From a virus, in the IMG/VR virus record IMGVR_UViG_3300034069_000436, positions 1 to 41,085 of that record: a DNA stretch of 41,085 nucleotides. One strand, given 5' to 3'. Positions 1 to 41,085 of this stretch are shown here, one piece after another. The notes beneath the pieces were generated by a model. It did not search any database, had not been told where the DNA came from, and was given only the letters and a program-made list of their open reading frames with translations. Both the position numbers and the translations under genes were made by a program. Each line of letters starts with the position of its first letter. The first letter of the stretch is position 1.

Positions 1-141
1 ACGCTGCATGGGGTCGAGTTCCATAATCTGCCACATGTCGGTATCCAGCACCAGCGCGTCGCGCGTAGTGCCGATGTTCCGATCCGGCACGAACGCCAAC
101 TCGCCGAAGTCCGACACGTACACGTCGGCGCCGCCGATGAT
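1..141. repeat. Left copy of the 141-bp terminal direct repeat (identical to 40945-41085)
   Basis: Base-by-base comparison: acgctgcatggggtcgag...ggcgccgccgatgat occurs at both window ends. Both copies lie inside the capsid coding sequence. Confidence 0.97.
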
Positions 142-13063: not shown

Positions 13064-13258
13064 CTATCGGTCCACCATCATTTCAGGCATCGGCTTACCT
13101 GCAACGGCGCCGAGCATTGCGATCGTATTACGATGCAGCTTCGGGACGCCGTTGTAGCGCCAATAGGAAAACGCCTGCCGGCTGATCCGCATGTGCGCCC
13201 TGATTGGAGCGAATCCCAGCCGATCAAGAGCCGCTGCGTCGGGATGATGCTGTTTCAT
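13064..13258 (-). CDS. Cro/YdaS-like HTH transcriptional regulator
   Basis: Only the last 64 aa of track ORF 13064..14086 look real: MKQHHPDAAALDRLGFAPIRAHMRISRQAFSYWRYNGVPKLHRNTIAMLGAVAGKPMPEMMVDR. It is the first gene of the leftward block and faces the divergent control region. Confidence 0.65.
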   Translation of the reverse strand: MKQHHPDAAALDRLGFAPIRAHMRISRQAFSYWRYNGVPKLHRNTIAMLGAVAGKPMPEMMVDR

Positions 13259-13363
13259 GAAACGCGATATGACACGCCAAAATAATTGACGCAAGAGGGT
13301 TGACGCGCAAAGCCTTTGACGGCAGATAGGGGCAGCAGGCCACCCCGGCTTTGGGAGAGCACC
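13259..13363. promoter_or_regulatory. Divergent early control region with three TTGACG direct repeats
   Basis: TTGACG occurs at 13286-13291, 13300-13305 and 13316-13321 (spacing 14 and 16 nt), in an AT-richer stretch (aaaataattgac). SD GGGAGAG lies before the GTG at 13364. The Cro-like ATG at 13258 has almost no leader. Confidence 0.45.
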
Positions 13364-16707: not shown

Positions 16708-17239
16708 CCTGCTGTCCGCACTTCGCGAGCCGCCCGTCGTGGGTCGGTTCTACATGGTCCCGGTCATCCGCGACTACCCGCTGGGTGGCAAGCTCGGCAC
16801 CTGGCCTGTGATCGGGCCGAAACATTCGGACATCGATTTCCTCAATTTCCGAGACGAGCATTATCATGTCGATGCGCGGTTCGTCACCGCTGCCCAAGAG
16901 CGGGCCATCACTGTTGGCGGACAACGTAGCTTAGAGGCGGTTGTCGGCAGTTGGCCGCTTGCATCTTACAGGCACGAGTTGCCGAAGGGCAGGCCCGCAC
17001 TGGCTCGGCTGAAGTGTCGCCGCAGCGCTTATGGCTATGCCTATGGTCATCAGCCGGCAATCAAGAAGCTGCGTGAGCATTACGGCGACCCGGCCGAGCC
17101 TATCCGCCTCGCCGATAGACGCCTGCTCTGCCCGCACCGCAAGGCCGATCTGTCCAGCTTTGCTCCGGGCGATGATGGCCTCGTGATTTGCCCGCTTCAC
17201 GGCCTGCGCGTGCGTTGTGCTCAAGGCCAGACCTCATGA
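16700..17239 (+). CDS. Protein with a C-terminal Rieske-type [2Fe-2S] ligand motif
   Basis: 179 aa. CPH-x17-CPLH (CPHRKADLSSFAPGDDGLVICPLH) fits the Rieske pattern CxH-x(15-17)-CxxH. Confidence 0.55.
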   Translation: MADLLSALREPPVVGRFYMVPVIRDYPLGGKLGTWPVIGPKHSDIDFLNFRDEHYHVDARFVTAAQERAITVGGQRSLEAVVGSWPLASYRHELPKGRPALARLKCRRSAYGYAYGHQPAIKKLREHYGDPAEPIRLADRRLLCPHRKADLSSFAPGDDGLVICPLHGLRVRCAQGQTS

Positions 17240-17268
17240 CCCGTCAACCACAACCAAGGGAGGGCGCG

Positions 17269-17955
17269 ATGCCCGTTGAGAAGTTCGAAGTCCGCAACCG
17301 CTGGTCCAGTCGCATCCAGTTCACTGCCGAGATCACCTGCGCGCCCGACGCCACGATCGGCGTGAAGTTGGGGCTGGCAGTAAGGTGGGCGAGAAAGAGC
17401 GGTGCCGTCCTGCGCGGTGCCGACCTGAGCGGTGCCGTCCTGCGCGACGCCGTCCTGCGCGACGCCGTCCTGCGCGACGCCGACCTGCGCGACGCCGTCC
17501 TGCGCGACGCCGACCTGAGCGGTGCCGTCCTGCGCGACGCCGTCCTGCGCGACGCCGACCTGAGCGGTGCCGTCCTGCGCGACGCCGACCTGAGCGGTGC
17601 CGTCCTGCGCGGTGCCGTCCTGCGCGGTGCCGACTGGCTCCCGCGTATCACCAACATTCACCAGTCGATCTACAATGCCGCTCGCCAGGAAGGCGCCCTC
17701 GACATGGCATCGTGGCACCGTAATGGCTACTGCGGCACGACGCATTGCCGGGCTGGATGGGCGGTGGTGCTGACCGGCGAGGGCGGCCGGGTGCTTGAGG
17801 GCATCTACGGCACCAACGCCGCTGCTGCGCTGATTTATCAGGCCAGCGACCCAAAGCTGGAGCGTATCCCTAACTGGATCGCGTCAAACCAAGACGCGCT
17901 GGACGACATGCGGATGAAGGCGGAAGCGGAAGCTGCCTCTGCGGTCTCCTCATGA
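17269..17955 (+). CDS. Pentapeptide-repeat protein with a Cys/His-containing C-terminal domain
   Basis: Track ORF 17188..17955. Start at MPVEKFEV, preceded by AGGGAGGgcgcg. It carries 16 consecutive [G/D]A[V/D]L[R/S] pentapeptides. The C-domain motif is WHRNGYCGTTHCRAGWAVVL. Confidence 0.8.
   Translation: MPVEKFEVRNRWSSRIQFTAEITCAPDATIGVKLGLAVRWARKSGAVLRGADLSGAVLRDAVLRDAVLRDADLRDAVLRDADLSGAVLRDAVLRDADLSGAVLRDADLSGAVLRGAVLRGADWLPRITNIHQSIYNAARQEGALDMASWHRNGYCGTTHCRAGWAVVLTGEGGRVLEGIYGTNAAAALIYQASDPKLERIPNWIASNQDALDDMRMKAEAEAASAVSS
17401..17637 (+). repeat. In-frame 15-bp tandem array, about 16 units
   Basis: Units are GGTGCCGTCCTGCGC, GACGCCGTCCTGCGC, GACGCCGACCTGCGC, GACGCCGACCTGAGC and GGTGCCGACCTGAGC, counted consecutively from 17401. 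Several adjacent units are 15/15 identical. Confidence 0.95.
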
Positions 17956-17987
17956 CCCCTCCCATGGATAGAGGCGAGGGGCGGGAG
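17952..17987 (+). repeat. Junction module copy J1
   Basis: atgacccctcccATGGATAGAGGCGAGGGGCGGGAG. The last 24 nt are identical to J2 18791-18814. Confidence 0.9.
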
Positions 17988-18758
17988 ACGCGCTCCGGCA
18001 TCATTCGTGACATTGATGGCGTGCTGCACGTCGTCGCGCTCTCCGGTGGTCACGACAGCACCATCCTGTCATTGCTGCTGAACGAGCGCGAGCCGCGTCC
18101 GTACCTTCATGTCTGTACGCCGACTGGCGATGAGTTGCCGGCAATGTTTGAGCATTGGAACCGGCTTAGCGGGATGCTCGGCAGCCGTATTATGCCGATC
18201 ATGGCGGGAAGCCTCAAAGGCGTCATCAGCCAAAAGGGGTGTTTGCCCAATTTCCGCCGGCGGTTCTGCACCCGCGTTTTGAAGATTGAGCCTTTCCGCG
18301 CTTTCATGGCTGCACAGGCCAAGGATGGGCCGGTCGTCTCCTATGTGGGTCTGCGCGCTGATGAGCCGGGACGGGCTGGCGGCGCTTACGACAACATTCC
18401 CGGCGTCACAATTCGTTACCCTTTACGCGAATGGGGCATGGGCGAGGACGAGGTTCAGGCCGGCTTGGCTGAGCGCGGCGTCAAGTGCCCCGATCGGACT
18501 GACTGCGGTCTGTGCTATCACCAGCGCATCGGCGAGTGGTGGGAATTGTGGAAATACCATCCCGACCGGTTTGATGATGGGGTAACGATTGAACAGCGCT
18601 ACGGGGAAACGTTTCGCACGCCGGGGCGCGATAGCTGGCCCACGTCGCTGAAGGAAATGGGCGAACGCTTTGAGGCCGGCGACAAGCCGAACACCAGCCT
18701 CAATCGCATGGCTCGGGAGCGTCAGCAAACGGGCTCTTGTCGCGTGTGTTCGCTATGA
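17952..18758 (+). CDS. PP-loop ATP pyrophosphatase, PAPS-reductase-like family
   Basis: 268 aa. VVALSGGHDSTILSLLL is the SGGxDS PP-loop. ATGA overlaps at both ends. Confidence 0.75.
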   Translation: MTPPMDRGEGRETRSGIIRDIDGVLHVVALSGGHDSTILSLLLNEREPRPYLHVCTPTGDELPAMFEHWNRLSGMLGSRIMPIMAGSLKGVISQKGCLPNFRRRFCTRVLKIEPFRAFMAAQAKDGPVVSYVGLRADEPGRAGGAYDNIPGVTIRYPLREWGMGEDEVQAGLAERGVKCPDRTDCGLCYHQRIGEWWELWKYHPDRFDDGVTIEQRYGETFRTPGRDSWPTSLKEMGERFEAGDKPNTSLNRMARERQQTGSCRVCSL

Positions 18759-18814
18759 CCATCCCCACCCATTCAGCAGGATCAGACACCATGGATAGAG
18801 GCGAGGGGCGGGAG
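18755..18814 (+). repeat. Junction module copy J2 (longest form)
   Basis: atgaccatccccacccattcagcaggatcagacaccatggatagaggcgaggggcgggag. It shares its 5' block with J3 and its 3' block with J1. Confidence 0.9.
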
Positions 18815-19606
18815 GGTGCGCAGCTTCGTGTGCTGTCGCTGTTTGCTGGCATCGGTGGCTTCGACTTGGGTCTTGAGCGGACCGGCGAATTTCGCACGGT
18901 TGCCTTTTGCGAGATCGATAAACGTTGCCGGCACGTGCTGGCGAAAAACTGGCCTGGAGTGCCGATCTATGAAGACGTGCTCGACCTTAGTGCCCAGCAT
19001 CTCGCCGCAGCAGGAATTGCCATTGATGTCATCTGCGGCGGGTTCCCATGCCAGAACATCAGTCTTGCCGGACGAATGGAGGGGATTGGTGGCGTCAAGT
19101 CTGGACTATGGCAGCACTACCTTCGTCTCGTCGAAGAAGTCCGTCCGCGCTGGGTCGTTGTCGAAAACAGTCCCGTCCTTCGCTCTCGCGGATTGGAAAT
19201 CATGCTCGGGCAGCTTGCTGCGATCGGGTATGATGCGGAGTGGCACTGTCTACCCGTTAATGCCTTTGGCGCGCCTCACCGGCGGGATCGCCTCTGGATT
19301 GTGGCCTACCCCGCTGGCGACCGAGACGGGCTTCCGCCGCTCCAGATTTCCACAGGGTGGGACCAGTCTAAGCACCGCGCTTGGTGGGATACCGAACCCG
19401 CTGTGGGTCGAGTGGTTGATGCGGTTTCCGCCGAACCACACCGCCTTGCCGAGCTCGGAAACGCCGTCTGTCCGGTAATTCCGGAGGAGATTGGCCGGGC
19501 AATTCTAGACGATGCGTTTGACCGCGCTGTCCGGCGTCCTTGCCCTGGTTGTGACCGACCGAACTACGACCATCATTGGAATTGCGCCGCGCAGGTCGCC
19601 GCATGA
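18755..19606 (+). CDS. DNA (cytosine-5)-methyltransferase, compact form
   Basis: Motif I LSLFAGIGGFDLG. Motif IV GGFPCQNIS. Motif VI VVENSP. Motif VIII HRRDRLWIV. Motif X GNAVCP. The variable region is very short. An alternative start is at 18791 (MDRGEGRE, AGGA 10 nt upstream). Confidence 0.85.
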   Translation: MTIPTHSAGSDTMDRGEGREGAQLRVLSLFAGIGGFDLGLERTGEFRTVAFCEIDKRCRHVLAKNWPGVPIYEDVLDLSAQHLAAAGIAIDVICGGFPCQNISLAGRMEGIGGVKSGLWQHYLRLVEEVRPRWVVVENSPVLRSRGLEIMLGQLAAIGYDAEWHCLPVNAFGAPHRRDRLWIVAYPAGDRDGLPPLQISTGWDQSKHRAWWDTEPAVGRVVDAVSAEPHRLAELGNAVCPVIPEEIGRAILDDAFDRAVRRPCPGCDRPNYDHHWNCAAQVAA

Positions 19607-22635: not shown

Positions 22636-22863
22636 CTATGCGGTGATGGCCTTGACCGCCCACATGACGGCTTCTTCGGTCTTGGTCTTGGCGATAGACA
22701 GTTCGCGGCCACTGCCAGCTTTGGCGATTAGGTCAAGCATGTGTGCGCCCGCATCCTTGATGGCCACCATCTGCGCCTTCTCGTCGTCGGTTAGGACGCG
22801 ATACTGATGGCGAACGGCATTGTTGGCAGTTCGTTCGTCTGATTCGCTGTCTACGTCAGTCAT
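22636..22863 (-). CDS. Small helical-hairpin protein, possibly of the Acb2/Tad1-hairpin-like family (a candidate signalling-nucleotide sponge)
   Basis: Track ORF 22636..22998 trimmed to MTDVDSE at 22863, preceded by AGGAGcatctc. The motif pattern is YRVLTDDEKAQMVAIKDAG...GRELSIAKTKTEEAVMWAVKAIT. The family assignment is from memory of this motif only, with no search run. Confidence 0.45.
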   Translation of the reverse strand: MTDVDSESDERTANNAVRHQYRVLTDDEKAQMVAIKDAGAHMLDLIAKAGSGRELSIAKTKTEEAVMWAVKAITA

Positions 22864-23020
22864 GAGATGCTCCTGTGATGCTGCGATTGACGTAGCATAC
22901 GGACAGGCCCATGAACAGGGAGCCGGGGTCAGGTTGGAGCCTGCCCCGGCGGACAACGCGGTTGGGCGCGCTGCCACAATGAGGTGGCTACACGGCACAG
23001 CCGCTCCGGTAAAGGAGCGA
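22864..23020. promoter_or_regulatory. Divergent intergenic region of the accessory island
   Basis: 157 bp between divergent starts at 22863 (-) and 23021 (+). Contains TTGACG (22887-22892) and an imperfect hairpin, gccggggtcagg-ttggag-cctgccccggc (22922-22950). Confidence 0.35.
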
Positions 23021-26683: not shown

Positions 26684-27214
26684 CTACGTCCTAAACCAAG
26701 TCTTGCGCTTTTGAATGTTGCGGATGGTATCTGCGCAAACGCTATACTTATTCGCGAGCGATGGCGCGCTGTTTCCGGCAGCGAGTGCAGCCCTTATTTC
26801 ATCAACGCTTTGCTGTGTAAGTTTCGCGAAAGGCGAGGTTTCACCATGATGAGGATTCGTGCCGTGGGCGTAGGCATCCGCGATGTTCTCCGCACGGGTG
26901 CCCCAACGTAGGTTTTCCGCTCTTGCGTTCCTGCGGTCTCCATCCTTGTGAAGCACCTCGCATCCTTGGGGCTTTTCTCCGTGAAAGGCGGTGCACACTA
27001 AAATGTGGACGGGCATGTTTTTGCGGACAAGGGTTGTGACATTAACAACGGGATAGCCGCGTGTGTATCCCGGCGACAGAAAGGTTCCTTTGCGGCGATA
27101 TCCCGGCAAGCTACGCACTCTGCCGTGAGAACTTACTTCATAGCTACCCTCGGCGCCCACTACCGGACGCCACTCTTCGCTGGTATAATCGGGGGTAGTC
27201 ATAGCGTGCTCCAT
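26684..27214 (-). CDS. Free-standing HNH homing endonuclease (NUMOD4 + HNH_3 + C-terminal HTH)
   Basis: Track ORF 26684..27409 trimmed to MEHAMTTPDY. Motifs: EEWRPVVGAEGSYEVSSHGRVRS, HKDGDRRNARAENLRWGT, SLANKYSVCADTIRNIQKRKTW. It looks lower in GC than the flanks, with a 145-bp non-coding leader at 27215-27359. Confidence 0.8.
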   Translation of the reverse strand: MEHAMTTPDYTSEEWRPVVGAEGSYEVSSHGRVRSLPGYRRKGTFLSPGYTRGYPVVNVTTLVRKNMPVHILVCTAFHGEKPQGCEVLHKDGDRRNARAENLRWGTRAENIADAYAHGTNPHHGETSPFAKLTQQSVDEIRAALAAGNSAPSLANKYSVCADTIRNIQKRKTWFRT

Positions 27215-27359
27215 CACGTTGTGATTAGAGCCGGGCAGCGTTGACCGCGCTGTTCCGGCTCGTTTTCGATATACACTAAAACGGGTCCAAGTGCTACGAT
27301 GCGGCATGACGATGACCGGCATCGCTTTGGGTTGTGCGCTGAAGGGCGTGGTCATGGCT

Positions 27360-30356
27360 TTATTGTCCCGCGACCGGGAGCAGCCCGAGGCCGGCTCCGA
27401 ACATGCCACCGAGGCGGCGACCGGTCGAATTGTCGATATACGCCCGATACGCGTTCTGACGCGCGAGAAGCGCCGTTAGCGCGTTCGACGCTTCCGCCGG
27501 GTTAGTGTTGAATACATATGGCGCGATCTGGTCCGCCTTAGCCACGGCTTTGTTTCCCAGCCCGAGCGCGACACGGTCTTTTAGGCCCAAGCCCGCAATG
27601 CGTGCGGCGGTACCCGGCAACGTAGCCCCGCCAGTCGCCATTGCGGCAGCGCCATGCAAGCCCGCTTCGATCAGCGGATTCGCGGCGAAATCTGCGTCGG
27701 CAATTTGACGCGCCGCCGTCAATGAGTTGCCCAACACCGTGTTGTTCGTGCGGGCAAGCTGGCCCTCTAGATCGCGGGTGCGCAGCAGCGCCGCGTTTCC
27801 CGGATTGTTCGGATACAGGCTCGCAAGCCTCTGTTCAGCGGCCGGCGTTCCCAGAGTGGCGTCGAACGGGTTGCTAGCGTAGCGCGCGCTATTGGCCCGG
27901 TCCATTAACGCGCCGCGATAGCCAAGCTGCATCTGCGAAATGTTGCCCGGTGCCGTGTTCGCCAAGTCAACGCCAAGCTGGTTAGGATTGGCGGTGAACG
28001 CATCCTGCCCTGCCTGCAAGGCGTTGGTCGCCTCCATGGGACCAGCATAGGCGCGCCGCGCCTGCCCGTAGAGCGGATTCGCGTTGTCCAGCGTGGATAG
28101 AAAGCTTTTTCGGGTGTCGTTAATCGCGTTTCCGGCAGTGTTCAGGCGCTGCGTCAGCGGATCGCGGGCGGCGTCGACCGTATCGTCAAGACCCCGCTTT
28201 ACATAGTCGAGCGTCTGCCACGAAGGTACACGGGTCAATGTCGGGTTGCCTTGCGGATCAAGGTCAAAGCCGAGCGTCGTAGGATCACGTCCTTCTTCAG
28301 CCGCAATGTTACGGGCGCGGCCGAGCGCGTTTTGTACCGAAGGCTTGGCAAGGAATGGCTTAATCTGTGGGTATGCCGCGCCCGCCCCAGGTGCCGCGTA
28401 TGCCGCATCATACAGCGGCCTGGCCTGCGTGCGCGCCTGCTTGAGCAAGTCCTCACTCATCTGCGGCACGTTACCGACCGGCCCAAGATTGGTCGTGACA
28501 GACTGCCCTAGCCGATCAATTTGCCCGCGCGCCCGAGCGCCAAACGTATCCTGCGCGATTTGCGCCGCGTCGGGCGATCGGCGTACAACCTGACCGCCAA
28601 GAGTGGCCATCTGCGCGCCGGTATCGGCCAGCGACATAGGCACGCCGAGCCGCTGCGCTTCGGCGAGCTGATCCGTAATGCTGGCTGGGCCGATCTGCTT
28701 AGCGCGGGTGGCCAAGAGGTTTTCGCCAGCGTTAAGAGGTGAAGGGGCGCCGCGCTTGGCGAACATGCCGCCAACCTTGCGCCCGAACATCCCCCCGCCA
28801 ACGCCAGCACCAGCGCCAAGCAGCGCACCGCCCAAACGACTACTGTCGTCGGCCGCGCCAGCGCCAGACACACCGCCGAATAGAGCATCCGCACCCCGCG
28901 CGACCCAAGGCGACGCGGCAGAAATGCCGGCACGCCCTGCCGCTGCACCAACACCGAGTTCGGTCCCAGCCGCCGCCAGTCCCGCACCAGTGATATCACC
29001 GAGCAGTCCCGACGTAGGGTTGGCCGCGCTCGCACCCGCCAGTCCCGCGCGGGCCAACGCGGGGTCGGCTGTCATGTTGTCCAGCGTGTTGCCGGTCAGC
29101 GCGTTGGCGGCGCTCATGGCATAGGTGCCCAGCGGCGAGGTGCCGCCGTTGAGCGAAAACGCGGGCTGAAGCTGCGGCTTCATCGCTGGCGCGACGTTCG
29201 GCCCGAAGCTGCCGTACCCATGGTTGGCACGGCGGTACTTCAGATTGTCCAGCAAGCCCGAGGCGGCGGGGTCGATGCCGGCTCCCTTGGCAAACGCCGT
29301 CACCTCGTCGTCGGGCCGCCCCGATGCGAGCATGGACGAAAGTTGGTCCACGACTTTCTGACGATCGGGATCGGGAGCCATGCCGCCGGGGCCGGAACCG
29401 ATGCCCATACCGGCGGGACCGGGAGGTGGCGTGCCGCCCGGCCCGGAGCTGCCGCCTGCACCTGTATCACCGCCAGTATTCGGCAAACCGCCCTGATGGC
29501 CCTGCACGGCCTGTGCAACCAGCGCGGCGGTGCTTTCCGGCACTGAAAAGCCAGGTTGGTTGGTCAAGCCCTTGTAGGCGCCGTTAATGCCCGCATGGAT
29601 CGCCGCCATGCGGTTAGCCATGTCGGTCTTCATCTGGTCGAACGCCGATTGCTTCTGGTCGACACTGCCGCTGCCGTTGATTGTGCTCATCGCCTCATGG
29701 CGCGCACTATCCGACAGTGTACCGGCGCCGCTTGGGCTGCCGGCAACAACCTTGGCGTATTCGTTGACGAACGTGTTGTAGGCAGCGTCAGCGGCGGAAA
29801 TCGTTGTTCCCCCAAACCGACGCTGCACCCAATCGCTAATGGCGTTTAGCGGCGCAAAACGGGTCTGACCGGGCAATTCACGGCTGCGGTCGAGAAATTG
29901 CTGCCCATTGGTGAGCGCCGTCTGTTCGTTGACGCCGATCGTGCCCGCCATGTTTTCCAAGTTGGCGATTTGCTTCGACCCGGCTTTGTAGTGCGCCACC
30001 TGTGTCGCGAGGTCGGCGCCATTGAGCCCGCGCGCGCCTGCCTGCCGCGCGACTTCGGCCATGACTGCCTGTCGCGCGGCAGCGGCCTGCTTGCCCATGC
30101 CCAGCGCAGGCATCTGGCCTCCAGCAAGCACCTGCTGCGCCATGTAGCTGACCGTCGCGGGGTCAATTGCCGGCTCGTCCTGTTGCGCAGCTTCGCGCGC
30201 CAGCTTGGCGTTTTGCAGTCGCCGCGCCTCTAGTTCCGCTGCAGCTTGTGCGCCCTTGTACCGATACGCCGGGTCGGGGTCGCCAACCGCCACGTACCCC
30301 GCATATGGGTTGGCGCTCGGCACCGCGTATTTCGCGTAAGGATTGTCCTGCGCCAT
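27360..30356 (-). CDS. Large internal virion / DNA-ejection protein (putative)
   Basis: Track ORF 27360..30419 trimmed to MAQDNPYAKYAV at 30356 (TAATG overlap). 998 aa, A/G-rich, with a G/P low-complexity linker. It follows the SLT-domain protein, as in podovirus ejectosome gene sets. Confidence 0.55.
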   Translation of the reverse strand: MAQDNPYAKYAVPSANPYAGYVAVGDPDPAYRYKGAQAAAELEARRLQNAKLAREAAQQDEPAIDPATVSYMAQQVLAGGQMPALGMGKQAAAARQAVMAEVARQAGARGLNGADLATQVAHYKAGSKQIANLENMAGTIGVNEQTALTNGQQFLDRSRELPGQTRFAPLNAISDWVQRRFGGTTISAADAAYNTFVNEYAKVVAGSPSGAGTLSDSARHEAMSTINGSGSVDQKQSAFDQMKTDMANRMAAIHAGINGAYKGLTNQPGFSVPESTAALVAQAVQGHQGGLPNTGGDTGAGGSSGPGGTPPPGPAGMGIGSGPGGMAPDPDRQKVVDQLSSMLASGRPDDEVTAFAKGAGIDPAASGLLDNLKYRRANHGYGSFGPNVAPAMKPQLQPAFSLNGGTSPLGTYAMSAANALTGNTLDNMTADPALARAGLAGASAANPTSGLLGDITGAGLAAAGTELGVGAAAGRAGISAASPWVARGADALFGGVSGAGAADDSSRLGGALLGAGAGVGGGMFGRKVGGMFAKRGAPSPLNAGENLLATRAKQIGPASITDQLAEAQRLGVPMSLADTGAQMATLGGQVVRRSPDAAQIAQDTFGARARGQIDRLGQSVTTNLGPVGNVPQMSEDLLKQARTQARPLYDAAYAAPGAGAAYPQIKPFLAKPSVQNALGRARNIAAEEGRDPTTLGFDLDPQGNPTLTRVPSWQTLDYVKRGLDDTVDAARDPLTQRLNTAGNAINDTRKSFLSTLDNANPLYGQARRAYAGPMEATNALQAGQDAFTANPNQLGVDLANTAPGNISQMQLGYRGALMDRANSARYASNPFDATLGTPAAEQRLASLYPNNPGNAALLRTRDLEGQLARTNNTVLGNSLTAARQIADADFAANPLIEAGLHGAAAMATGGATLPGTAARIAGLGLKDRVALGLGNKAVAKADQIAPYVFNTNPAEASNALTALLARQNAYRAYIDNSTGRRLGGMFGAGLGLLPVAGQ

Positions 30357-34299: not shown

Positions 34300-35729
34300 G
34301 CGCGTGAGCCCTGTTCGTAATCCAGATCAATGCCTTGAAAGAACGTCCACGACTGCGGTGGAATGACCACCCATGCCTGTACGTAGTTCCAGCTCTCACG
34401 TACCCTTATCGTTCCCGATGCTCGCGCCGAGGCATAGGTCGTCGTCGTCTGCGAGCCAGCAAGAGAGTTCGACCCGGCAATGCCGACTTGCGGGCTGGGA
34501 GCGTCCGTCATCGGTCGGACCGCTTGCAACCTAGCCCGATAGCCCGGAATCAGTTCCTTGCGCCCGTCGCCGAACGTGGCGGGTAGGGGCATCCCCGTAA
34601 ACGAGCCGAGCGTGTTGCTCCCGTCGAACGCCAGCAGGATTGGATACCCACCTCGTAGCGCGATACTGTCGAGGGAGAAGGGAATGGCATCGATCGAGCC
34701 ATACAACCCGTCAAGCTGTTCCAGCGACGTAGCGTTTGCAAGGCCGCTGACCAACCGGGACACCGGGGTTGTCGCGGTAGACCATTTGTCCAGCAGATAG
34801 TTGTAGATCAGCAGCCGATTGGCCGGAAAGGCCGATGGCAGGGTGACGATGTAAAGCGAGTTCTGCGGATCGACCACCGCCGTCACGCTATCAATGTAAG
34901 AGCGGTCGGACAGCCCCCGAAACCAGCGGTCAACCTTTTCCGATCCGATCGGCGTCATGGTCGAGCCGTCGAACGACATGAACCCGCGATTGGACAGGAA
35001 GAACGTCGTTGTGCCCCACGTCGCCAGCGTACCCGGCGCGACGCAACCCACGTCCTTCGCAACCTCGTCGAACTGCCACACCCGGCTATCGGCCGTGTAG
35101 CTCATGCGGACGATGCGGTTTTCCTGATAGACGTAGCCGGCCTGATTGTTGCCGCCGACAAGTCCCGTCACGTCGCCGCCCGTTGCCATGTCGGCCACGC
35201 CAGCCTCCGATGCAGTGCTGGGCGTCCATGATTCCGGCGCGCCTTGGTCGGACCATGCGATGCGGTTAGGCGATCCCGAGGCGTAGCCTAGCACCGTAAA
35301 GCCACCCACAACGGCAATATAGCGAGCGACCGGAGGCGAACCGCCCAGATTGGCAATGGCGTTTGTTGGCGCCGGGGTGAATTTCTTCACGGGATCGGCG
35401 CCGTTGGTCATAATAAGCAGCGAGGCATAAGGAACGGCCTGCACGCCAATCAGGTTGTTCAGGCCCGTCGCCATGCTGGTAAAGCCACCGGCCGCCACCG
35501 AATAGATGGTGGTGGCGTCCGCAGCAAACGAGTAAGTGACGCCAGCCGTGCGGTAGGCAAATCCGCCATAGGGTCGGCTGCCCAATCCTCCGTTGGCATT
35601 GGGGACGAACGAGTAGAATGGTCCGTAGCCGTTCTTAACGGGAAAACAGCCATCGGCAGTTACAATCCCTTCGCTCAAAAAAGGGGGCTGATCGGGCAAC
35701 CAGCTTCCGAATGTAACACGCTGCTTCAC
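34296..35729 (-). CDS. Tail structural protein (tail tube / nozzle candidate)
   Basis: 477 aa, beta-rich, MKQRVTFGSWLPDQPPFLSEG... The call rests on position in the tail block only. Confidence 0.45.
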   Translation of the reverse strand: MKQRVTFGSWLPDQPPFLSEGIVTADGCFPVKNGYGPFYSFVPNANGGLGSRPYGGFAYRTAGVTYSFAADATTIYSVAAGGFTSMATGLNNLIGVQAVPYASLLIMTNGADPVKKFTPAPTNAIANLGGSPPVARYIAVVGGFTVLGYASGSPNRIAWSDQGAPESWTPSTASEAGVADMATGGDVTGLVGGNNQAGYVYQENRIVRMSYTADSRVWQFDEVAKDVGCVAPGTLATWGTTTFFLSNRGFMSFDGSTMTPIGSEKVDRWFRGLSDRSYIDSVTAVVDPQNSLYIVTLPSAFPANRLLIYNYLLDKWSTATTPVSRLVSGLANATSLEQLDGLYGSIDAIPFSLDSIALRGGYPILLAFDGSNTLGSFTGMPLPATFGDGRKELIPGYRARLQAVRPMTDAPSPQVGIAGSNSLAGSQTTTTYASARASGTIRVRESWNYVQAWVVIPPQSWTFFQGIDLDYEQGSRA

Positions 35730-36361
35730 GCTCGCACGCCGAGCCCGTCATAGACGTTGGCGCGCATGACGATCGGCCCCCCGTAACGCGCGCGGTTGCC
35801 GGCTTTGTTGATATCGTCGATAATCGACGCCAACTTGGCTTGGATGATCGGCAAGCGGCTATCCGTCCAGCCGAAGAACTCCGCTTGCAGCAGCGTACCG
35901 AACAGATAGGCGTCGGGATGCTTGGTCAGCAGCCAGTTGGTCTCGTTGTCGGGCGTGATCGCGGGAATCGCCTGCCGATAGACCAGATTGATGGTGTACG
36001 CGGCGTCAGGCGAAGGCCAGACATACAAGTTCTGATTGCTGGTAGCGTAATATTGGGGCTGGCCCGCTACGGGCGCAGGTAGCGCGTAGAACTCGTTGAA
36101 GCCAAGCTGCTCCAGCGGCCACGAAGGAGCGCCGACAATGGCGAGAGACCGGATGCTGTCCACGTCGGCGGGTAGCGCAGGATTGAACGGATCGATCGTC
36201 ACCGTTGCTTCCATGTCGGGCGTGACGATGTTGCGCCGGAAATCCGCTTCTGCCAGCGCAATCATATTGGGAATATTGTCAGTCAGCGAATCCCCGGCGT
36301 CGTCGAGCCACGCCTGTACCGCCGCAACTAGCCCGTCATAAGTGCGGATATCCTGCGCCAT
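35726..36361 (-). CDS. Head-tail adaptor / tail tubular A-like protein (putative)
   Basis: 211 aa. The N-terminus YDGLVAAVQAWLDDAGDSLTDNIPNMIALAEADFRR resembles an adaptor-family motif I recall from podoviruses. Confidence 0.4.
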   Translation of the reverse strand: MAQDIRTYDGLVAAVQAWLDDAGDSLTDNIPNMIALAEADFRRNIVTPDMEATVTIDPFNPALPADVDSIRSLAIVGAPSWPLEQLGFNEFYALPAPVAGQPQYYATSNQNLYVWPSPDAAYTINLVYRQAIPAITPDNETNWLLTKHPDAYLFGTLLQAEFFGWTDSRLPIIQAKLASIIDDINKAGNRARYGGPIVMRANVYDGLGVRA

Positions 36362-36371
36362 AACTGCACCC

Positions 36372-37100
36372 TTACGCCTTTCCGAGCATCACAGCAGCCC
36401 CGTCCGTGCCGCTGCTAAATGTCATTGAAGGGGCTGCGCTCGGCAGAGCGCCATAAGCCACAGTTCCCACTAGATATCGGCCCGGAGTACTAAGATCTTC
36501 ACCAATTGCACGGGGATAGATACCCATTGCAGAAGTGCTGATACCCTTGACCGTCGCGGGAGTAGAGCCTTGCTTAAACAAGGCCGCCGCGAAGTAGATG
36601 CCCGGATTGAGATAGGCGTTCATGCCGTTCAGAAACAGGCGAGCGCCCGCAACCGCCGCCGAGTTGACGGCCGAGTCCAACGACAGCTCGCCCGCGTCTT
36701 TCACCAGCGCGCCGAACCCTCCCGTGCTGCGATCCAGCCCGTACATGCCCATGCGGACCGCGCAGCCTGTCTGCGGGGTGGTCAGATGGATGCCGATACT
36801 GTTGATGTTGACCTTGCGGTGGAACACGAACTTCTGGGCGATCAGCAGCCCGGCCGCCGGGGTGCGGTCGGTCAGCGCCGTGATGCCGGGCGCGAACTGC
36901 GCGAAGCCGGACGGCCAATACTGGTCGTCGAACGCCGTCAGTATCCACTCGGCCGAGCCGGTCGTGGCGTTGGCGCAGGTCCACTGTTCACCGGTGTTGC
37001 GGTTGAACCAGCTGGAGCCGATCACATAGCCCTGGCTGGCGTCGTTGCCGGCATTGGGGTCGATGGTCGCAGAGAGGTTGTTCTTGATGTCGGCCATCAT
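36372..37100 (-). CDS. Tail fibre-like protein
   Basis: 242 aa. DPNAGNDASQGYVIGSSWFNRNTGEQWTCANATTGSAEW is a common fibre motif. Confidence 0.55.
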   Translation of the reverse strand: MMADIKNNLSATIDPNAGNDASQGYVIGSSWFNRNTGEQWTCANATTGSAEWILTAFDDQYWPSGFAQFAPGITALTDRTPAAGLLIAQKFVFHRKVNINSIGIHLTTPQTGCAVRMGMYGLDRSTGGFGALVKDAGELSLDSAVNSAAVAGARLFLNGMNAYLNPGIYFAAALFKQGSTPATVKGISTSAMGIYPRAIGEDLSTPGRYLVGTVAYGALPSAAPSMTFSSGTDGAAVMLGKA

Positions 37101-38435
37101 TCAGAGCTCCAGAACAGCATCGCGCATCGAGGCGAGCTGGGGTGTGGGTTGAAAATCGGCGGTGTAGGCGCAGGGCATCTCGCCCGCGGTCGACATCCAG
37201 CTGTTGTAGCCGTTGTCGAGTGTCCACTCGACCAGCATGCCGCCACCGGTCGACTGAACGATGGGCAGCGCGACATCGAGGTACTGCTTGCGGATGTTGC
37301 TCGCGATCCGCTCGTACTCGTAGGCGCTGTAGCTGGTCGGCGCGGGCGTATCGACCTTGCCATAGGCGTCGATGATGCCATCGCCGTAGCCCGTCCGGAC
37401 GTCGATCTCGGAGACGATGATCTTGAGCCCGAGGCCGACGAGGCCTTGCAGAAAGCTGCGCAGGCGCGGCGCCGAGAACGACAGCCGGAACTGCATGTGC
37501 GCCTGCTGGGCATAGCCATCAACCACTGCGCCCGCCTGTATCGCCGCCGTGATGCCGGCGAGCGTGTTCTGGGCAAGGTTGTTGAACGTCGACGAGCCCA
37601 GCTGCTCCGTCTGGTCCTGACACCAGAACAGCGGCACGCCGGGTAGCTTCTGCCGCACGCGAGCGATGGCGAACAGCACCGGCGCCAGATAGTCGTCCTG
37701 GGTGGCGGTCGAGGCGGTGCGGCCAGCGACCGTCGCCGCCGCGGTGTTCCACGGATTGGTCCGCCAGCCGCCCGGATTGGTGGAGCCCGCGGAGAAGAGC
37801 TCGTTCACGACGTCGGCGTTCGCGATGATGTCGGTGTATCCGGCGAGCAGCCCGCAGATCGCGTCGATGCGGGCGGCCATCAGCGTCTGCCACTGGCCGG
37901 GGTTCTGCTGGAGGTACGTGTCGATCCAGGTGCCGATGTCGCGCTTGGGGTAGACGCCGATGACGTGGCCGCGGACCTTCTTCCCCTTGGCTCGCGCGTC
38001 GTCCAGGAATGCCTTGGCGGGGTTGAGGTTGAAGCTGCCCAGCGACGGATTGAAGTTGTCGCCCATCATCACGTAGCCGGGCACGTACAAGTCGACGTTG
38101 TCCGCGATCCACGCCTGCCGGGTGGCATAGCCCGCTGGCCCCGCCGCGCCCATGACGTCGCCGCCCTGGATCGAGGTGCCGAGCAGGATGCCCTTGTTGG
38201 CGCTGATCGTCTTGAGCAGCCCGCCGGGATCGACGGTGTAGCTGCCGACCAAAGCATTCCCAGAAACATCTGTTTCTCGGTTATTAGCTAGGTCAATTAA
38301 GGTACCCGCAATGCGGGTGGGAGCGACCAAAATAACGGCGGGTTGATGCCCACCCATCGAATTGACGATGACATCCTCGTCAGGAGTGGGCTGCCGACCG
38401 CCATACGACGCCAGCGTGTCCGACAACACAGACAT
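37101..38435 (-). CDS. Tail-associated glycoside hydrolase, GH10-like (clan GH-A TIM barrel)
   Basis: 444 aa. The ordered motif series is KGKKVRGHVIGVY, ADVVNELF, LFWCQDQTE, VDGYAQQAHMQ, LKIIVSEIDVR, LVEWTLDNGYNSW. This parallels GH10 RGH / WDVVNE / NDYN / G.Q.H / ITELD / WG..D..SW. Confidence 0.65.
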   Translation of the reverse strand: MSVLSDTLASYGGRQPTPDEDVIVNSMGGHQPAVILVAPTRIAGTLIDLANNRETDVSGNALVGSYTVDPGGLLKTISANKGILLGTSIQGGDVMGAAGPAGYATRQAWIADNVDLYVPGYVMMGDNFNPSLGSFNLNPAKAFLDDARAKGKKVRGHVIGVYPKRDIGTWIDTYLQQNPGQWQTLMAARIDAICGLLAGYTDIIANADVVNELFSAGSTNPGGWRTNPWNTAAATVAGRTASTATQDDYLAPVLFAIARVRQKLPGVPLFWCQDQTEQLGSSTFNNLAQNTLAGITAAIQAGAVVDGYAQQAHMQFRLSFSAPRLRSFLQGLVGLGLKIIVSEIDVRTGYGDGIIDAYGKVDTPAPTSYSAYEYERIASNIRKQYLDVALPIVQSTGGGMLVEWTLDNGYNSWMSTAGEMPCAYTADFQPTPQLASMRDAVLEL

Positions 38436-38644
38436 CAGCCGCCGCTTAGCTTGCCGATAATGGCGAGAGCCACATCACCGGCAGGAGCCAAGCTGACCTG
38501 CCCGGCCGGGCCGATTGGCGGCTCAAAATCGATTACCGTTGGAGAGCCGTGGTAGTCGATGCTTTCGATCTCGTCGGCGCCAACGTAATATCCATCGCCA
38601 TTCTCGCGGAGTGAAAAAGTACGGCCGGCTATATTGATATCCAT
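38435..38644 (-). CDS. Hypothetical protein
   Basis: 69 aa, with 1-nt overlaps at both ends. Confidence 0.5.
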   Translation of the reverse strand: MDINIAGRTFSLRENGDGYYVGADEIESIDYHGSPTVIDFEPPIGPAGQVSLAPAGDVALAIIGKLSGG

Positions 38645-39072
38645 TATTGCCTCCCGACGACGCGGACGGGAAGGCCCGAGGTCGCGTTAGAAATTGGCGA
38701 AACTGTCAACCCGAGTAATGCCGTTGCCACAGTCGGCAAGGTGGTTGCTACAAGCTGCCAGCACTTCCCGCTGAACGTAGTGGCCGTCACAGCACTAACC
38801 GTACATTTGTAGGGCGTGTTACCCGATGAGGGGATGTCCGCCAGATACCCGGTTGGCGGCGCGCTGAACGGAATGGCCCACGTTCCTGAGAACGTACCAT
38901 CGGACAGCGTGTTCGTTGTCGCTGCCTGAATTTGTCCCTGCATGAGAGTCAAGTTAGTCGCAGCGGCTGCGGACAAATCGTCTGGGCTAACCCCGTTGGG
39001 GGCTACGGTCGCTTGGCCAAAGACCGGAGAGCAGATAAGGCAAATCGCTCCTGCGGCTTGTAGGACCTTCAT
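38644..39072 (-). CDS. Predicted secreted protein (Sec-type signal peptide)
   Basis: 142 aa. MKVLQAAGAICLICSPVFG|QATVAPN. Low-GC codon usage. ATGA overlap upstream. Confidence 0.55.
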   Translation of the reverse strand: MKVLQAAGAICLICSPVFGQATVAPNGVSPDDLSAAAATNLTLMQGQIQAATTNTLSDGTFSGTWAIPFSAPPTGYLADIPSSGNTPYKCTVSAVTATTFSGKCWQLVATTLPTVATALLGLTVSPISNATSGLPVRVVGRQ

Positions 39073-39863
39073 TTTGCCTGCCCCGAAAGAGTGATCGGCG
39101 CGGTGCCGACTGGCGTGTATGTCGTGCAGCTAGTTGAAAACAGAAGCGTTACACCGGTCGACAAAAGCAAGGGCGTAGTAAATCCCTTATCATAGCTGCT
39201 CGATGCCGCAAGTTGATAACAATACGGCGTACTCGCCGCCGCCAACGTAGCGCCACTAGCCGGGGCAGCGCTGGCATTGTAAACCACAATATACCCCGCC
39301 GCTGTCGAATTTACGATATTGATGCTGTAAAGCGCACCTGCGGTGGCCTTGATGACAACTGCCGTTACACCCTGCGCCGTCGTTCCTGCAACCGGTCCAG
39401 GTGTCGTGTAAAGGTTGCCGAAAAAGTCGCACTGCAAACTACCCTGATACTGGTCGGCCCACGCAGCTCGGGTAGCGTAACTCTTGCACCCGATAAGATC
39501 AGATGTAAGCGTGGTGGAAAGCATCGTCGCTGGATCGACGTTACCGGCAGATGACACACCGACTTTCAAACGACCCGTTGTGATGCAGTTCAGCGGGTTA
39601 CTCGTTCCTACGATGTAGGTCTGATTGCCCGTGACAGCCGTACACAGCGACAGCGTGCCACCTTGCCCCATCGTCGTAGAGCCCTGCGCGCTACCGCCGA
39701 TGCTAGCCACCAGCGGCACACGGAGGGTTTTCCCGCTTCCGTCATTCGCCGGGACTGTCGTGGCTGCATCATAAGGAGGTGTGTTCTCCTTTTGAGTGAC
39801 GGTCTGCGCCTGCGCCACAATCGGCAGCAACAGCGGCAGAGTGTGAAGCAGGCGCAGCCGCAT
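39069..39863 (-). CDS. Predicted secreted T/S/G/A-rich beta protein (Sec-type signal peptide)
   Basis: 264 aa. MRLRLLHTLPLLLPIVAQA|QTVTQK. Low-GC region. TAATG overlap upstream. Confidence 0.55.
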   Translation of the reverse strand: MRLRLLHTLPLLLPIVAQAQTVTQKENTPPYDAATTVPANDGSGKTLRVPLVASIGGSAQGSTTMGQGGTLSLCTAVTGNQTYIVGTSNPLNCITTGRLKVGVSSAGNVDPATMLSTTLTSDLIGCKSYATRAAWADQYQGSLQCDFFGNLYTTPGPVAGTTAQGVTAVVIKATAGALYSINIVNSTAAGYIVVYNASAAPASGATLAAASTPYCYQLAASSSYDKGFTTPLLLSTGVTLLFSTSCTTYTPVGTAPITLSGQAK

Positions 39864-40279
39864 TACTTGTTGCCCTTCTTGGTGTGATGCTCGGGCGTGT
39901 CGATGTACGCCGCGCGCTGAGCCTCGGCATGACTGACACCGCCCTTGGGCGTGTCGTTGGTCTCACCCGGCGTCGGAGTATCGTTCTCCGCGACGACCAG
40001 CATCTGCGGCACATCCCGACCGGCGAGCGGCGGCTGTTCGCGCATGCCGTCATAGGTGCCGTCGTCGGGCTGAATGGCGCCGGACGAATGCTCCGAACGG
40101 CTCACCTGCTCGTCGGTGCCGACCAGCTTGTCCGTCGTATCAGCCTCGCCGGTAACTTCCTGCGTCTTTGCGTTGGCCTCGTCCGACACCTTGACGCGCG
40201 CCTTCTGCTGATCGTCCAGCGCCTTGGCCGTCTGCGTGTTGATGTTGTCGTCCGGCTTGTCGATCTTCTTGGTGGTCAT
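39863..40279 (-). CDS. Acidic, likely disordered virion-module protein
   Basis: 138 aa, D/E/T/K-rich. Confidence 0.5.
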   Translation of the reverse strand: MTTKKIDKPDDNINTQTAKALDDQQKARVKVSDEANAKTQEVTGEADTTDKLVGTDEQVSRSEHSSGAIQPDDGTYDGMREQPPLAGRDVPQMLVVAENDTPTPGETNDTPKGGVSHAEAQRAAYIDTPEHHTKKGNK

Positions 40280-40289
40280 GTCACGTCTC

Positions 40290-40613
40290 CTAAAGGCGGA
40301 ACTGGTTGGTCCGCAAATGAGCGTATTCGCTGCTGTTCAAAAGGCGACGGACGCCTTCCTTGTGATTAGGGTCATACAGGTTGACCCCGTGCTTGTTGAT
40401 CCATTCCATGATCGTCACGGCAGGGATATGAGCGGCGTGCCACATGTCGGCGCGACGGTCGAACCCCTCCGCTTGCTGTTCCTTGTTGGCGTCAAGAATC
40501 GGCGTGGCGTCCTGGCGATAACGAAACCCCCATGTGTCACCGTCGTCCTGTGCGGCAAACTCCGTGGTCAGCCCCGTGGTGGGATCGTGATCCAATTGCC
40601 GCCAAGCACTCAC
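40290..40613 (-). CDS. Hypothetical head-module protein
   Basis: 107 aa, with a 4-nt overlap upstream. Confidence 0.55.
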   Translation of the reverse strand: MSAWRQLDHDPTTGLTTEFAAQDDGDTWGFRYRQDATPILDANKEQQAEGFDRRADMWHAAHIPAVTIMEWINKHGVNLYDPNHKEGVRRLLNSSEYAHLRTNQFRL

Positions 40614-40819
40614 ACCAGCACCGCCTTGCCCTGTGCCACGAGGTCATCGGCAACGTAATCCGGCACCTCTGCCGTATCGCCGTTGTAGATGACGCGCTCG
40701 TCGCCGAGGAACAGGTCTGCCGGCACGGTAGCCTTGATCGTCACCAGATCAGTTGCCAGGGCCTCGTCAGCGAGGATGGCATCCTGTGTCACCGGATTTC
40801 TCATTCTACCGCGCGGCAT
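40610..40819 (-). CDS. Hypothetical small protein downstream of the capsid gene
   Basis: 69 aa, 11 nt after the capsid stop. Confidence 0.5.
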   Translation of the reverse strand: MPRGRMRNPVTQDAILADEALATDLVTIKATVPADLFLGDERVIYNGDTAEVPDYVADDLVAQGKAVLV

Positions 40820-40830
40820 TCCTTGTCTCC

Positions 40831-41085
40831 TTACGACGGGGTGATATCGGCGATCACACCGGATGCCGCGTCATTGCTGCACCGCAGAGTAACCTCCGTG
40901 TACATGGCATCACGGTCGGCAAGCCCGGTCGTCGCCAGCTTGCGACGCTGCATGGGGTCGAGTTCCATAATCTGCCACATGTCGGTATCCAGCACCAGCG
41001 CGTCGCGCGTAGTGCCGATGTTCCGATCCGGCACGAACGCCAACTCGCCGAAGTCCGACACGTACACGTCGGCGCCGCCGATGAT
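40831..41085 (-). CDS. Major capsid protein, C-terminal segment (same gene as 1..864; 40945-41085 duplicates 1-141)
   Basis: Track ORF 40831..41067 is in frame with my capsid reading across the overlap. Position 40945 corresponds to position 1 at a codon boundary. Confidence 0.85.
   Translation of the reverse strand: MIGGADVYVSDFGELAFVPDRNIGTTRDALVLDTDMWQIMELDPMQRRKLATTGLADRDAMYTEVTLRCSNDAASGVIADITPS
40945..41085. repeat. Right copy of the 141-bp terminal direct repeat
   Basis: Identical to 1-141. Confidence 0.97.

Follow-up and report, generated by a model that had tools for sequence, protein, structure and literature searches.

A probable exported edition of a two-protein fibre-like module in the late operon of an SU10-like podophage

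Introduction

Structural operons of tailed phages are assumed to encode cytoplasmic proteins. The IMG/VR virus record IMGVR_UViG_3300034069_000436, analysed here over its whole length of 41,085 nucleotides (nt) and referred to as the window, carries in its late operon two consecutive open reading frames (ORFs), ORF A and ORF B, whose products both begin with what look like Sec-type signal peptides. This raises the question of why proteins encoded among virion genes would leave the cytoplasm, and what they might do outside it. Our analysis suggests that the pair represents a fibre-like module that exists in two interchangeable forms, with and without signal peptides, at the same slot in several phage lineages.

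Results

Signal peptides and cysteine patterns

The following features of the two genes are central to the argument; arrows mark predicted cleavage sites.

39069..39863, minus strand: ORF A, 264 amino acids (aa), with a signal peptide, a cysteine-containing fibre-like middle (C74/C93, C126/C145) and a C-terminal jelly-roll knob
39807..39863, minus strand: ORF A signal peptide, residues 1–19, MRLRLLHTLPLLLPIVAQA, predicted cleavage AQA↓Q
39072..39386, minus strand: ORF A jelly-roll knob, about residues 160–264, with a C215/C246 pair; AlphaFold2 (AF2) predicted local distance difference test (pLDDT) score 93–98
38644..39072, minus strand: ORF B, 142 aa, with a signal peptide, a short helical neck and a beta-sandwich knob
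39016..39072, minus strand: ORF B signal peptide, residues 1–19, MKVLQAAGAICLICSPVFG, predicted cleavage VFG↓Q
38647..38931, minus strand: ORF B beta-sandwich knob, residues 48–142, with a conserved C90/C104 pair; AF2 pLDDT about 80–95

Signal peptides were called with a crude rule for n-, h- and c-regions, complemented by comparison of homologues. Among 249 six-frame ORFs of at least 60 aa, the rule flags six, and only A and B of these lie in credible genes. ORF A is laid out as MRLR / LLHTLPLLLPIV / AQA↓Q, with two Arg in the n-region, an h-region of about 12 residues and an AxA motif, and ORF B as MK / VLQAAGAICLIC / SPVFG↓Q. The hydrophobic cores of both span about 12–15 residues and contain Pro, His or Gln; Lys/Arg precede them and a small-x-small/AxA-type motif follows. 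Such cores are too short for these N-termini to be transmembrane helices.

Homologues are rare and come from metagenomes or prophages only, and at 30–55% identity they keep their signal peptides. The homologues of ORF A are designated P0002–P0055, and its signal layout recurs in P0002, P0003, P0004, P0005, P0017, P0029 and P0049–P0055. Homologue N-termini include MRSLRYFALPLLALATVAQA↓Q (P0003), MKWVYAALILTTAGVAQA↓Q (P0012) and MRLLVLAAAMAAIASPTAA↓Q (P0014), and the closest ORF B homologue, at locus L014, starts VRIMRALAVACLFCAPAFG↓Q. Profile scans with ORF B found one locus each in the genome and IMG/VR collections and two in a metagenome scan, and a search of 1.84 billion cluster representatives at E ≤ 1e-3 places 154 of them in its family. 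By the crude rule, 121 of 155 listed ORF B-family members have a signal peptide, the remainder being mostly fragments or weaker signals.

The cysteines follow the signal peptides. ORF A contains six (at positions 74, 93, 126, 145, 215 and 246). In its family, all 13 members with a signal peptide have 2–9 cysteines, while 32 of the 35 without one have 0–1 and the other three have at least two (Fisher p of about 4e-9, phylogeny ignored). Most of the signal-peptide-bearing members carry the C-terminal-domain pair YC...STSCTTYT, which is absent from all members lacking the signal; counted as a C215/C246-type pair, it is present in 11 of the 13 signal-bearing members shown and in none of the others. 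Across the module, the number of mature cysteines is even (2, 4, 6 or 8) in 12 of 12 signal-peptide-bearing proteins, compared with 0–1 in their signal-less counterparts, and the exported form of X, an alternative second gene of the module introduced below, has an extra cysteine that completes a pair. Nearly all listed members of the ORF B family have at least two cysteines. In ORF B itself, C90 and C104 appear to face each other in a predicted hairpin (E88-95/E99-107), judged by strand register in the DSSP string of the AF2 model.

The layout of the N-termini, their conservation, the cysteine pattern and its parity, and the paired hairpin cysteines of ORF B together make export into an oxidising compartment very likely. 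From their sequences, A and B are thus predicted, with high confidence, to reach the periplasm through cleavable Sec-type signal peptides and to fold there with disulfide bonds. This bears out the first-pass annotation of the window, made from the sequence alone, which had proposed Sec signal peptides for both ORFs.

Familiar classes of exported phage protein were considered and set aside. A lipoprotein of the Llp/Cor type or an o-spanin was rejected: both proteins lack a lipobox ([LVI][ASTVI][GAS]C) and a cysteine at position +1. Two cysteines in the signal peptide of ORF B (C11 and C14) are not conserved in P0012, P0014 and P0015. A spanin pair was rejected too, the lysis genes lying at about 23.4–25.3 kb and A and B being rich in beta structure and devoid of lipobox or coiled coil. 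As to an outer-membrane beta-barrel of the Lom/Ail type, the C-termini (...SGQAK and ...VGRQ) are non-aromatic and the AF2 models are compact sandwiches, not barrels.

A probable paired cassette in two editions

We compared 12 loci. Six of them have signal peptides both on the A-like protein and on the product of the next gene (the window, L014, L013, L001, L016 and L005), and in the other six neither protein has one (L018, L022, L010, L020, L017 and L008). Their gene orders are listed below.

Window, with signal peptides: A, B, 69-aa gene, GH10-like gene
L014, P22-like, with signal peptides: coat, 149 aa, P0029 (A-like), 134-aa close ORF B homologue (with signal peptide), 83-aa homologue of the 69-aa gene, gp4, gp10
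L013, with signal peptides: P22-type portal, P0017 (A-like), 168-aa protein with signal peptide, Calx-beta/GDSL protein
L001, E217-like myovirus with integrase, with signal peptides: baseplate J, wedge, Gp53-like_C, P0002 (A-like), 201-aa B-like protein (with signal peptide), 623-aa GDSL protein
L016, with signal peptides: capsid, 176 aa, A-like, protein with signal peptide, 776 aa
L005, SU10-like and syntenic with the window, with signal peptides: capsid, 79 aa, 107 aa, 101 aa, P0003, 229-aa X with signal peptide, 67 aa, 774 aa
L018 and L022, SU10-like, without signal peptides: capsid, Bbp16, 102 aa, A-like, second gene, adaptor, nozzle
L010 and L020, P22-like, without signal peptides: coat, 148 aa, A-like, X, (53 aa), gp4
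L017, without signal peptides: portal, A-like, X
L008, without signal peptides: free-standing island of A-like, X, 66 aa

Products of the second gene, be it B, X or another, have in common the N-terminal motif SG[VL][ST]xx[DE][VIL], which stands directly after the initiator Met in the forms without a signal peptide and directly after the predicted cleavage site in the forms with one. Because both proteins switch compartment together and the second keeps its N-terminal motif, A and B probably work as a pair. A and B are likely, in our view, to form the exported edition of a fibre-like module of two proteins, of which a cytoplasmic edition, devoid of signal peptide and cysteines, takes the same slot in relatives. 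In related phages this slot lies after the capsid gene and before the adaptor gene or gp4.

The pair is followed by a third gene:

38435..38644, minus strand: third cassette gene, 69 aa, acidic, without signal peptide, with the motif GSPxVIxFxPPIxP

Homologues of this gene directly follow B-like genes at L011 (66 aa) and L014 (83 aa), and a related small gene ending in LGLPDxVC follows X at L005, L008 and L020. Its product is, on sequence grounds, a candidate small cytoplasmic partner of the exported pair. Both this third gene and the sister editions without signal peptides or cysteines, at the same slot in relatives, had been overlooked by the first-pass annotation.

Backgrounds that carry the cassette range from SU10-like and P22-like phages to an E217-like myovirus, a siphovirus prophage and others. 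A, B and the 69-codon gene are therefore best described as a mobile three-gene cassette within the late (virion) operon, consisting of accessory genes and not of core virion genes. That the genes are embedded in this operon was claimed from the start and holds, with the addition that they are accessory and mobile and have no promoter of their own. Other placements add to this range: at L015 an A-like gene with a signal peptide is the last tail-module gene before the lysis genes in a siphovirus prophage next to dnaA, and at L024 such a gene follows the capsid gene. The genes next to the cassette usually encode tail enzymes active on polysaccharides, namely GH10 in the window, GDSL/SGNH proteins at L001, L013 and L006, and a tailspike-like protein of 795 aa at L011.

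At L006 (7668-10064), three ORFs with signal peptides lie in a row after an M15 endolysin gene and an i-spanin-like gene, and encode a 154-aa protein, a 457-aa GDSL/SGNH esterase and a B-like protein of 181 aa. That an exported esterase stands beside a B-like protein is a hint that an envelope glycan is acted upon.

A, B and the 69-aa protein match no Pfam (searched to E 1), PHROG, NCBIfam or PADLOC family. When the region, A, B and two homologues lacking signal peptides were compared by blastn and tblastn with 50,697 GenBank phage records, nothing matched, and sequence-profile searches of the PDB returned compositional noise (ribosomal L11) or nothing. In the literature we found no description of fibre modules bearing signal peptides, or of a module of this kind whose members change jointly between forms with and without them.

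Predicted folds

The larger protein had been described as rich in Thr, Ser, Gly and Ala and probably all-beta, which our data support: these four residues make up 47% of A and 46% of B, against 29–35% in other genes, and the AF2 models of both proteins are nearly all beta. Foldseek searches with the predicted structures pointed to fibre-tip-type folds for both, through BFVD matches for A and weak PDB matches for B.

In ORF A, residues ~160–264 are modelled as an eight-stranded jelly roll with pLDDT 93–98, and the remainder has low confidence, as expected when a fibre is modelled as a monomer. Its PDB matches are weak jelly-roll matches at E>0.02 (nucleoplasmin core, BPP-1 cement protein, CBM32, C1q and BC2L-C). 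In BFVD, 24 matches at E<1e-3 are all phage proteins, many of them small and uncharacterised or the C-termini of proteins annotated as 'tail fiber', 'collagen triple helix repeat' or 'C1q-like'. On the basis of these BFVD matches the modelled C-terminal domain looks like a fibre knob, more specifically a jelly roll of the C1q/collagen-fibre-knob type. The N-terminus of ORF A, where a fibre would have its virion-attachment domain, is taken up by the signal peptide. The mature N-terminus is similar to that of P0003 only (z-score 16.9), and the C-termini of these two proteins differ. Homology of this N-terminus with the N-termini of the signal-less proteins of the SU10-like relatives L018 and L022 was considered and dropped, the comparison being not significant (z 0.4-1.1).

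The best PDB match of ORF B is the R2 pyocin fibre tip (6ct8/6cl6; E 2e-3 to 4e-3, probability 1.0), followed by the H-type lectin of Helix pomatia, the C-terminal domains of the phi297, Pam1, LKA1 and Sf6 tailspikes, and AP22 gp53. Its modelled knob thus resembles a pyocin-fibre-tip or H-type-lectin-like domain, through matches that are weak (E from 2e-3 to 7e-3, 11–18% identity, template-modelling (TM) score about 0.4; 11–12% identity to the H-type lectin). Aligned with the signal-less second gene of L018, ORF B reaches an hhalign probability of 3%.

Genome context and base composition

The ends of the window (1-141 and 40945-41085) are an exact 141-bp direct repeat, so that the window is a circular assembly and a complete genome of 40,944 bp; the gene for an SU10-type major capsid protein crosses the junction of its ends. 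The phage is a complete 40.9-kb SU10-like podophage whose minus strand bears a single long late operon.

Late operon, minus strand, in order: terminase, SU10-type portal, scaffold-like, capsid, 69-, 107- and 138-aa genes, ORF A
Late operon, minus strand, continued: ORF B, 69-aa gene, GH10-like, 242-aa fibre-like, SU10 adaptor, 477-aa nozzle-like, further tail/ejection genes
Late operon, minus strand: SU10-type portal (PF23899, E 1.7e-162)
39863..40279, minus strand: 138-aa gene upstream of ORF A and translationally coupled to it (TAATG junction)
37101..38435, minus strand: GH10-like protein, 444 aa (PF00331, E 2.3e-19)
35726..36361, minus strand: SU10-type adaptor, the head-tail junction marker downstream of the cassette (PF24175, E 6.5e-25; phrog_2941)
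Late operon, minus strand: nozzle-like protein, 477 aa (phrog_3287)

Overlaps with the neighbouring genes by TAATG and ATGA, as first reported, were recovered. The 138-aa gene and A meet in TAATG, A and B in ATGA, B and the 69-aa gene in TAATG preceded by GGGAGG, and the 69-aa gene and the GH10-like gene in TGATG; between the latter and the 242-aa gene, TGA is directly followed by ATG. A scan for the sigma-70 consensus, which may not fit the host, found no promoter-like site in 36000-41085, and the terminator-like matches in this interval are weak and all lie within genes. Lysozyme and holin-like genes are located at about 23.4–25.3 kb, some 14 kb from the pair, and no integrase was found among the scanned ORFs of the window.

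The GH10-like character of the neighbouring gene was confirmed by a sequence-profile match to PF00331 (70.2 bits against a cut-off of 22.1) that spans residues 74–438, and its product is a probable tail-attached polysaccharide hydrolase. The first ~35 residues of this protein (MSVLSDTLASYGGRQPTPDEDVI...) are the only part in common with a 774-aa non-GH10 protein in the same slot of L005 (8981-11305). This common start looks like a conserved virion-anchor peptide on which enzyme bodies may have been swapped.

The genome is mosaic. Its adaptor is 43–44% identical to those of L018 and L022 and 33% to that of L005, and over 39069-40613 its closest match among these three is L005, for the 107-aa gene (71%), the 138-aa gene (47%, to the 101-aa gene that precedes P0003) and the N-terminus of ORF A (z 16.9). 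The host is weakly inferred to be alphaproteobacterial, since a B-like gene occurs in a Sphingomonas metagenome-assembled genome, GcrA is present at one locus of the signal-less edition, one structural match is from Sphingomonas phage Scott, and the genome has 61% GC.

A foreign origin had been proposed from a GC content of 48–55% in the region, against about 68% in the GH10-like gene. Both figures need correction: the 1220-nt region has 57.7% GC, with 60-nt lines ranging from 47 to 70% (mean 57.6%), and the GH10-like gene has 64.6%. Compared with same-size windows across the genome (mean 61.2%, standard deviation (SD) 2.5), the region is among the lowest 3% but only about 1.4 SD low. A clearer contrast emerges in GC content at third codon positions (GC3): A has 0.61, B 0.64 and the 69-aa gene 0.61, while the genes on either side have 0.84 and 0.85. 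Values of 0.59–0.66 are found in several other genes of the same phage. In most phages examined, cassette GC3 lies below that of the flanking structural genes, with or without signal peptides (window, L010, L014, L017, L018, L020 and L022). Since this holds for both editions, low GC3 is a trait of the module and not a mark of recent arrival. The proposal of foreign origin thus keeps weak support: the dip exists and the cassette occurs in unrelated phages, but the dip is modest and low GC3 is general to the cassette. We accordingly dropped GC content as proof, the modest dip being common to both editions in other phages; mobility is better evidenced by the occurrence of the cassette in unrelated phage types.

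Further genes were noted elsewhere in the genome. Just after the lysis genes, 22636-22998 (minus strand) encodes a protein of 120 aa in which an Acb2/Tad1 hairpin domain was recognised (PF24729, E 1.7e-19) and which is probably a cyclic-nucleotide sponge directed against CBASS (cyclic-oligonucleotide-based antiphage signalling system) or Thoeris. A homing endonuclease with HNH_3 and NUMOD4 domains (phrog_59, E 1.5e-45) lies among tail genes at 26684-27409 (minus strand), and its GC3 of 0.595 is as low as that of the cassette. Within the minus-strand ORF at 13064-14086, a 12-bp unit is repeated 19 times (13828-14058, 91% matches) and codes for a low-complexity run of the (GPGS)n type, at the place where the genome is richest in GC (about 69%). 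On the plus strand, 17188-19606 encodes a pentapeptide-repeat protein (PF00805, E 1e-24), whose gene holds a 15-bp DNA repeat in 15 copies at 17404-17626. Genes for a PAPS-reductase-like protein and a C5 cytosine methyltransferase come next; together these genes may form a block for DNA mimicry or anti-restriction plus DNA modification.

Discussion

If A and B are exported, what might they do in the envelope? Our leading guess, to which we assign a probability of roughly 0.35–0.4, is that they mask a glycan or receptor. Superinfection exclusion, receptor masking and envelope remodelling had been put forward in the first-pass annotation, and this line of thought fits the fibre-tip- or lectin-like folds and the polysaccharide-active tail enzymes encoded nearby. 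The pair would be produced late, in step with the virion proteins, and would bind a surface or periplasmic glycan, most plausibly the receptor polysaccharide, or its periplasmic intermediates, on which the tail enzymes encoded next to the cassette act (GH10 in this phage, SGNH esterases or tailspikes in others). The receptor would thereby be masked on the infected or lysing cell, superinfecting phage would be excluded, and progeny would be kept off the dying cell and its debris. There is precedent for the concept in Llp of T5 and the periplasmic Spackle of T4, both compared below, and in receptor blocking by a prophage ('anti-Kronos'), which protects progeny (bioRxiv 10.1101/2024.03.05.583538).

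Several observations weigh against masking and the evidence behind it. If the receptor is exposed on the outside of the outer membrane, a soluble protein of the periplasm has no way of getting to it unaided. The genome contains no paralogue of A or B elsewhere, which leaves a specificity shared with the phage's own receptor-binding proteins unsupported. The resemblance to lectins and fibre tips of solved structure is weak (best E 2e-3; TM about 0.4). Editions without signal peptides occupy the gene positions of head fibres, decoration proteins or tail fibres, which favours a structural role of the module. These members of the ORF A family form one shallow clade nested among deep signal-peptide-bearing lineages; the correlation between signal peptides and cysteines therefore reflects few evolutionary events, and phylogenetic correction matters. 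Finally, at L011 a B-like gene with a signal peptide and its small partner follow the tailspike-like 795-aa protein, without an adjacent A-like jelly-roll gene.

The foremost alternative is that A and B are head or tail fibres or decoration proteins of the virion which are folded oxidatively in the periplasm and bind to finished particles at holin lesions or upon lysis. We regard it as serious, if on balance doubtful, because sister editions without signal peptides and cysteines occupy the same slot in relatives. The signal-less module lies in structural slots, between the major capsid, Bbp16 and 102-aa genes and the SU10 adaptor gene at L018 and L022 and in the order coat, 148 aa, A, X, gp4/gp10 at L010 and L020, and the exported edition takes the same slot in the window, L005 and L014. 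The partners switch together and keep a docking-like motif at the N-terminus of the second protein, and the genes are translationally coupled to virion genes. The common mature N-terminus (z 16.9) and the differing C-termini of A and P0003 are modular in the manner of virion fibres. In other phages, finished particles can take up decoration and fibre proteins in vitro. SU10 itself has a two-protein long fibre, with gp12 proximal and gp13 distal, docked on the adaptor (PMC9509320). However, binding would be confined to a short interval around lysis, and the mature N-terminus of ORF A is unlike the signal-less N-termini of L018 and L022 (z 0.4–1.1) despite 43–44% identical adaptors. The position of the cassette also varies as for accessory genes, after portal, capsid or baseplate genes or before lysis genes. 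We know of no tailed-phage virion protein that matures in the periplasm. An assembly step outside the cytoplasm, in which fibre or decoration proteins are sent through Sec, disulfide-bonded in the periplasm and loaded after holin permeabilisation or lysis, with cytoplasmic and periplasmic editions of one fibre module interchanging among related phages, seems improbable but keeps a substantial chance of being right.

The pair could also have some other role in the envelope, such as easing the exit of phage through thick exopolysaccharide or an outer layer, disturbing the export or assembly of polysaccharides in the periplasm, or serving as surface adhesins of the lysogenic-conversion type. The signal-peptide and cysteine evidence for export fits this as well, as do several placements: the B-like protein of L006 follows an esterase and a 154-aa protein that both bear signal peptides, beside the M15 endolysin and i-spanin-like genes, the A-like gene of L015 is the last before the lysis genes, and L001, L002 and L015 are prophage or temperate contexts. 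In the window, however, about 14 kb separate the pair from the lysis module, the ORFs scanned yielded no integrase, and family scans detected no enzymatic domain in A or B; a role of this kind is unlikely here.

The first-pass annotation had also raised the possibility that the hydrophobic N-termini are membrane-insertion segments. A and B would then be tail proteins that assemble in the cytoplasm and enter the host membrane by their N-termini when the phage infects. This accommodates their place in a structural operon and their fibre-like folds, but it is very improbable, given hydrophobic cores of only ~12–15 residues with Pro, His or Gln, flanked by Lys/Arg and small-x-small or AxA-type cleavage motifs, even mature cysteine numbers that accompany these N-termini and are absent from homologues without them, and an ORF B family that is almost uniformly signal-peptide-bearing.

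Should masking prove true, A and B would represent envelope effectors of a new family, expressed late and apparently descended from proteins of the fibre type, with a bearing on the avoidance of progeny loss and on superinfection exclusion in environmental, probably alphaproteobacterial, hosts. Incorporation into the virion would instead overturn the view that all parts of tailed-phage virions assemble in the cytoplasm. The co-variation of signal peptides and cysteines provides a simple computational handle for finding further cases.

Comparison with known systems

A and B resemble exported accessory proteins of phages in their presumed working but belong to none of the known families of such proteins. 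One point of comparison is Cor of T1 and phi80, a phage envelope protein that blocks FhuA and has the same proposed role as Llp of T5. Llp is an envelope protein that blocks the phage's own receptor, FhuA, and is thought to prevent superinfection and the loss of progeny to receptor-bearing debris (PMC9586334). As predicted for A and B, Llp and Cor are phage-encoded and Sec-exported, and they are encoded near receptor-binding genes. Unlike A and B, they are small lipoproteins with a lipobox and act on a protein receptor, whereas A and B lack a lipobox and are predicted to be soluble and fibre-knob- or lectin-like; A and B also come as a pair with a third gene in the late operon and show no sequence or family relationship to Llp or Cor.

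Spackle of T4 is a soluble periplasmic phage protein with a signal peptide that acts on a component of the incoming phage (PMC7677548). It is likewise phage-encoded, but it is small, helical and made early, and the component it inhibits is the gp5 lysozyme. A and B are modelled as beta-sandwich proteins and belong to a late operon.

In its genetic behaviour the cassette is reminiscent of morons, the Hendrix-type 'more DNA' units such as lom and bor of lambda, which are mobile accessory genes between structural genes, with atypical composition, and often encode envelope proteins (PMC3594210). Like these, the cassette is present or absent between related phages, occurs in unrelated ones and has an atypical composition (GC3 0.61–0.64 versus 0.84–0.85). 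Classical morons, however, have their own promoter and terminator, of which none were found for the cassette, where all junctions overlap, and the models of A and B are soluble beta-sandwiches, unlike Lom, which forms a beta-barrel in the outer membrane.

On the structural side, the long fibre of SU10, gp12 plus gp13, is likewise encoded by two consecutive genes near the adaptor gene and consists of a fibre and a knob (PMC9509320), and in the cassette it is the second protein that has a conserved, docking-like N-terminal motif. The SU10 fibres nevertheless have no signal peptides, assemble in the cytoplasm, show no detected sequence similarity to A and B and differ in gene order relative to the adaptor. 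The knob of ORF B superposes, at 11–18% identity, on both the C-terminal domain of the R2 pyocin fibre and Helix pomatia agglutinin, but ORF B is a stand-alone, probably secreted protein of 142 aa and not the tip of a long fibre.

For masking by a virus's own attachment-type protein we know of no phage example. The parallel, in concept only, comes from another kingdom and involves no homology: in receptor interference by retroviral Env, the virus sends its own attachment-type protein through the secretory pathway, where it occupies the receptor in the infected cell.

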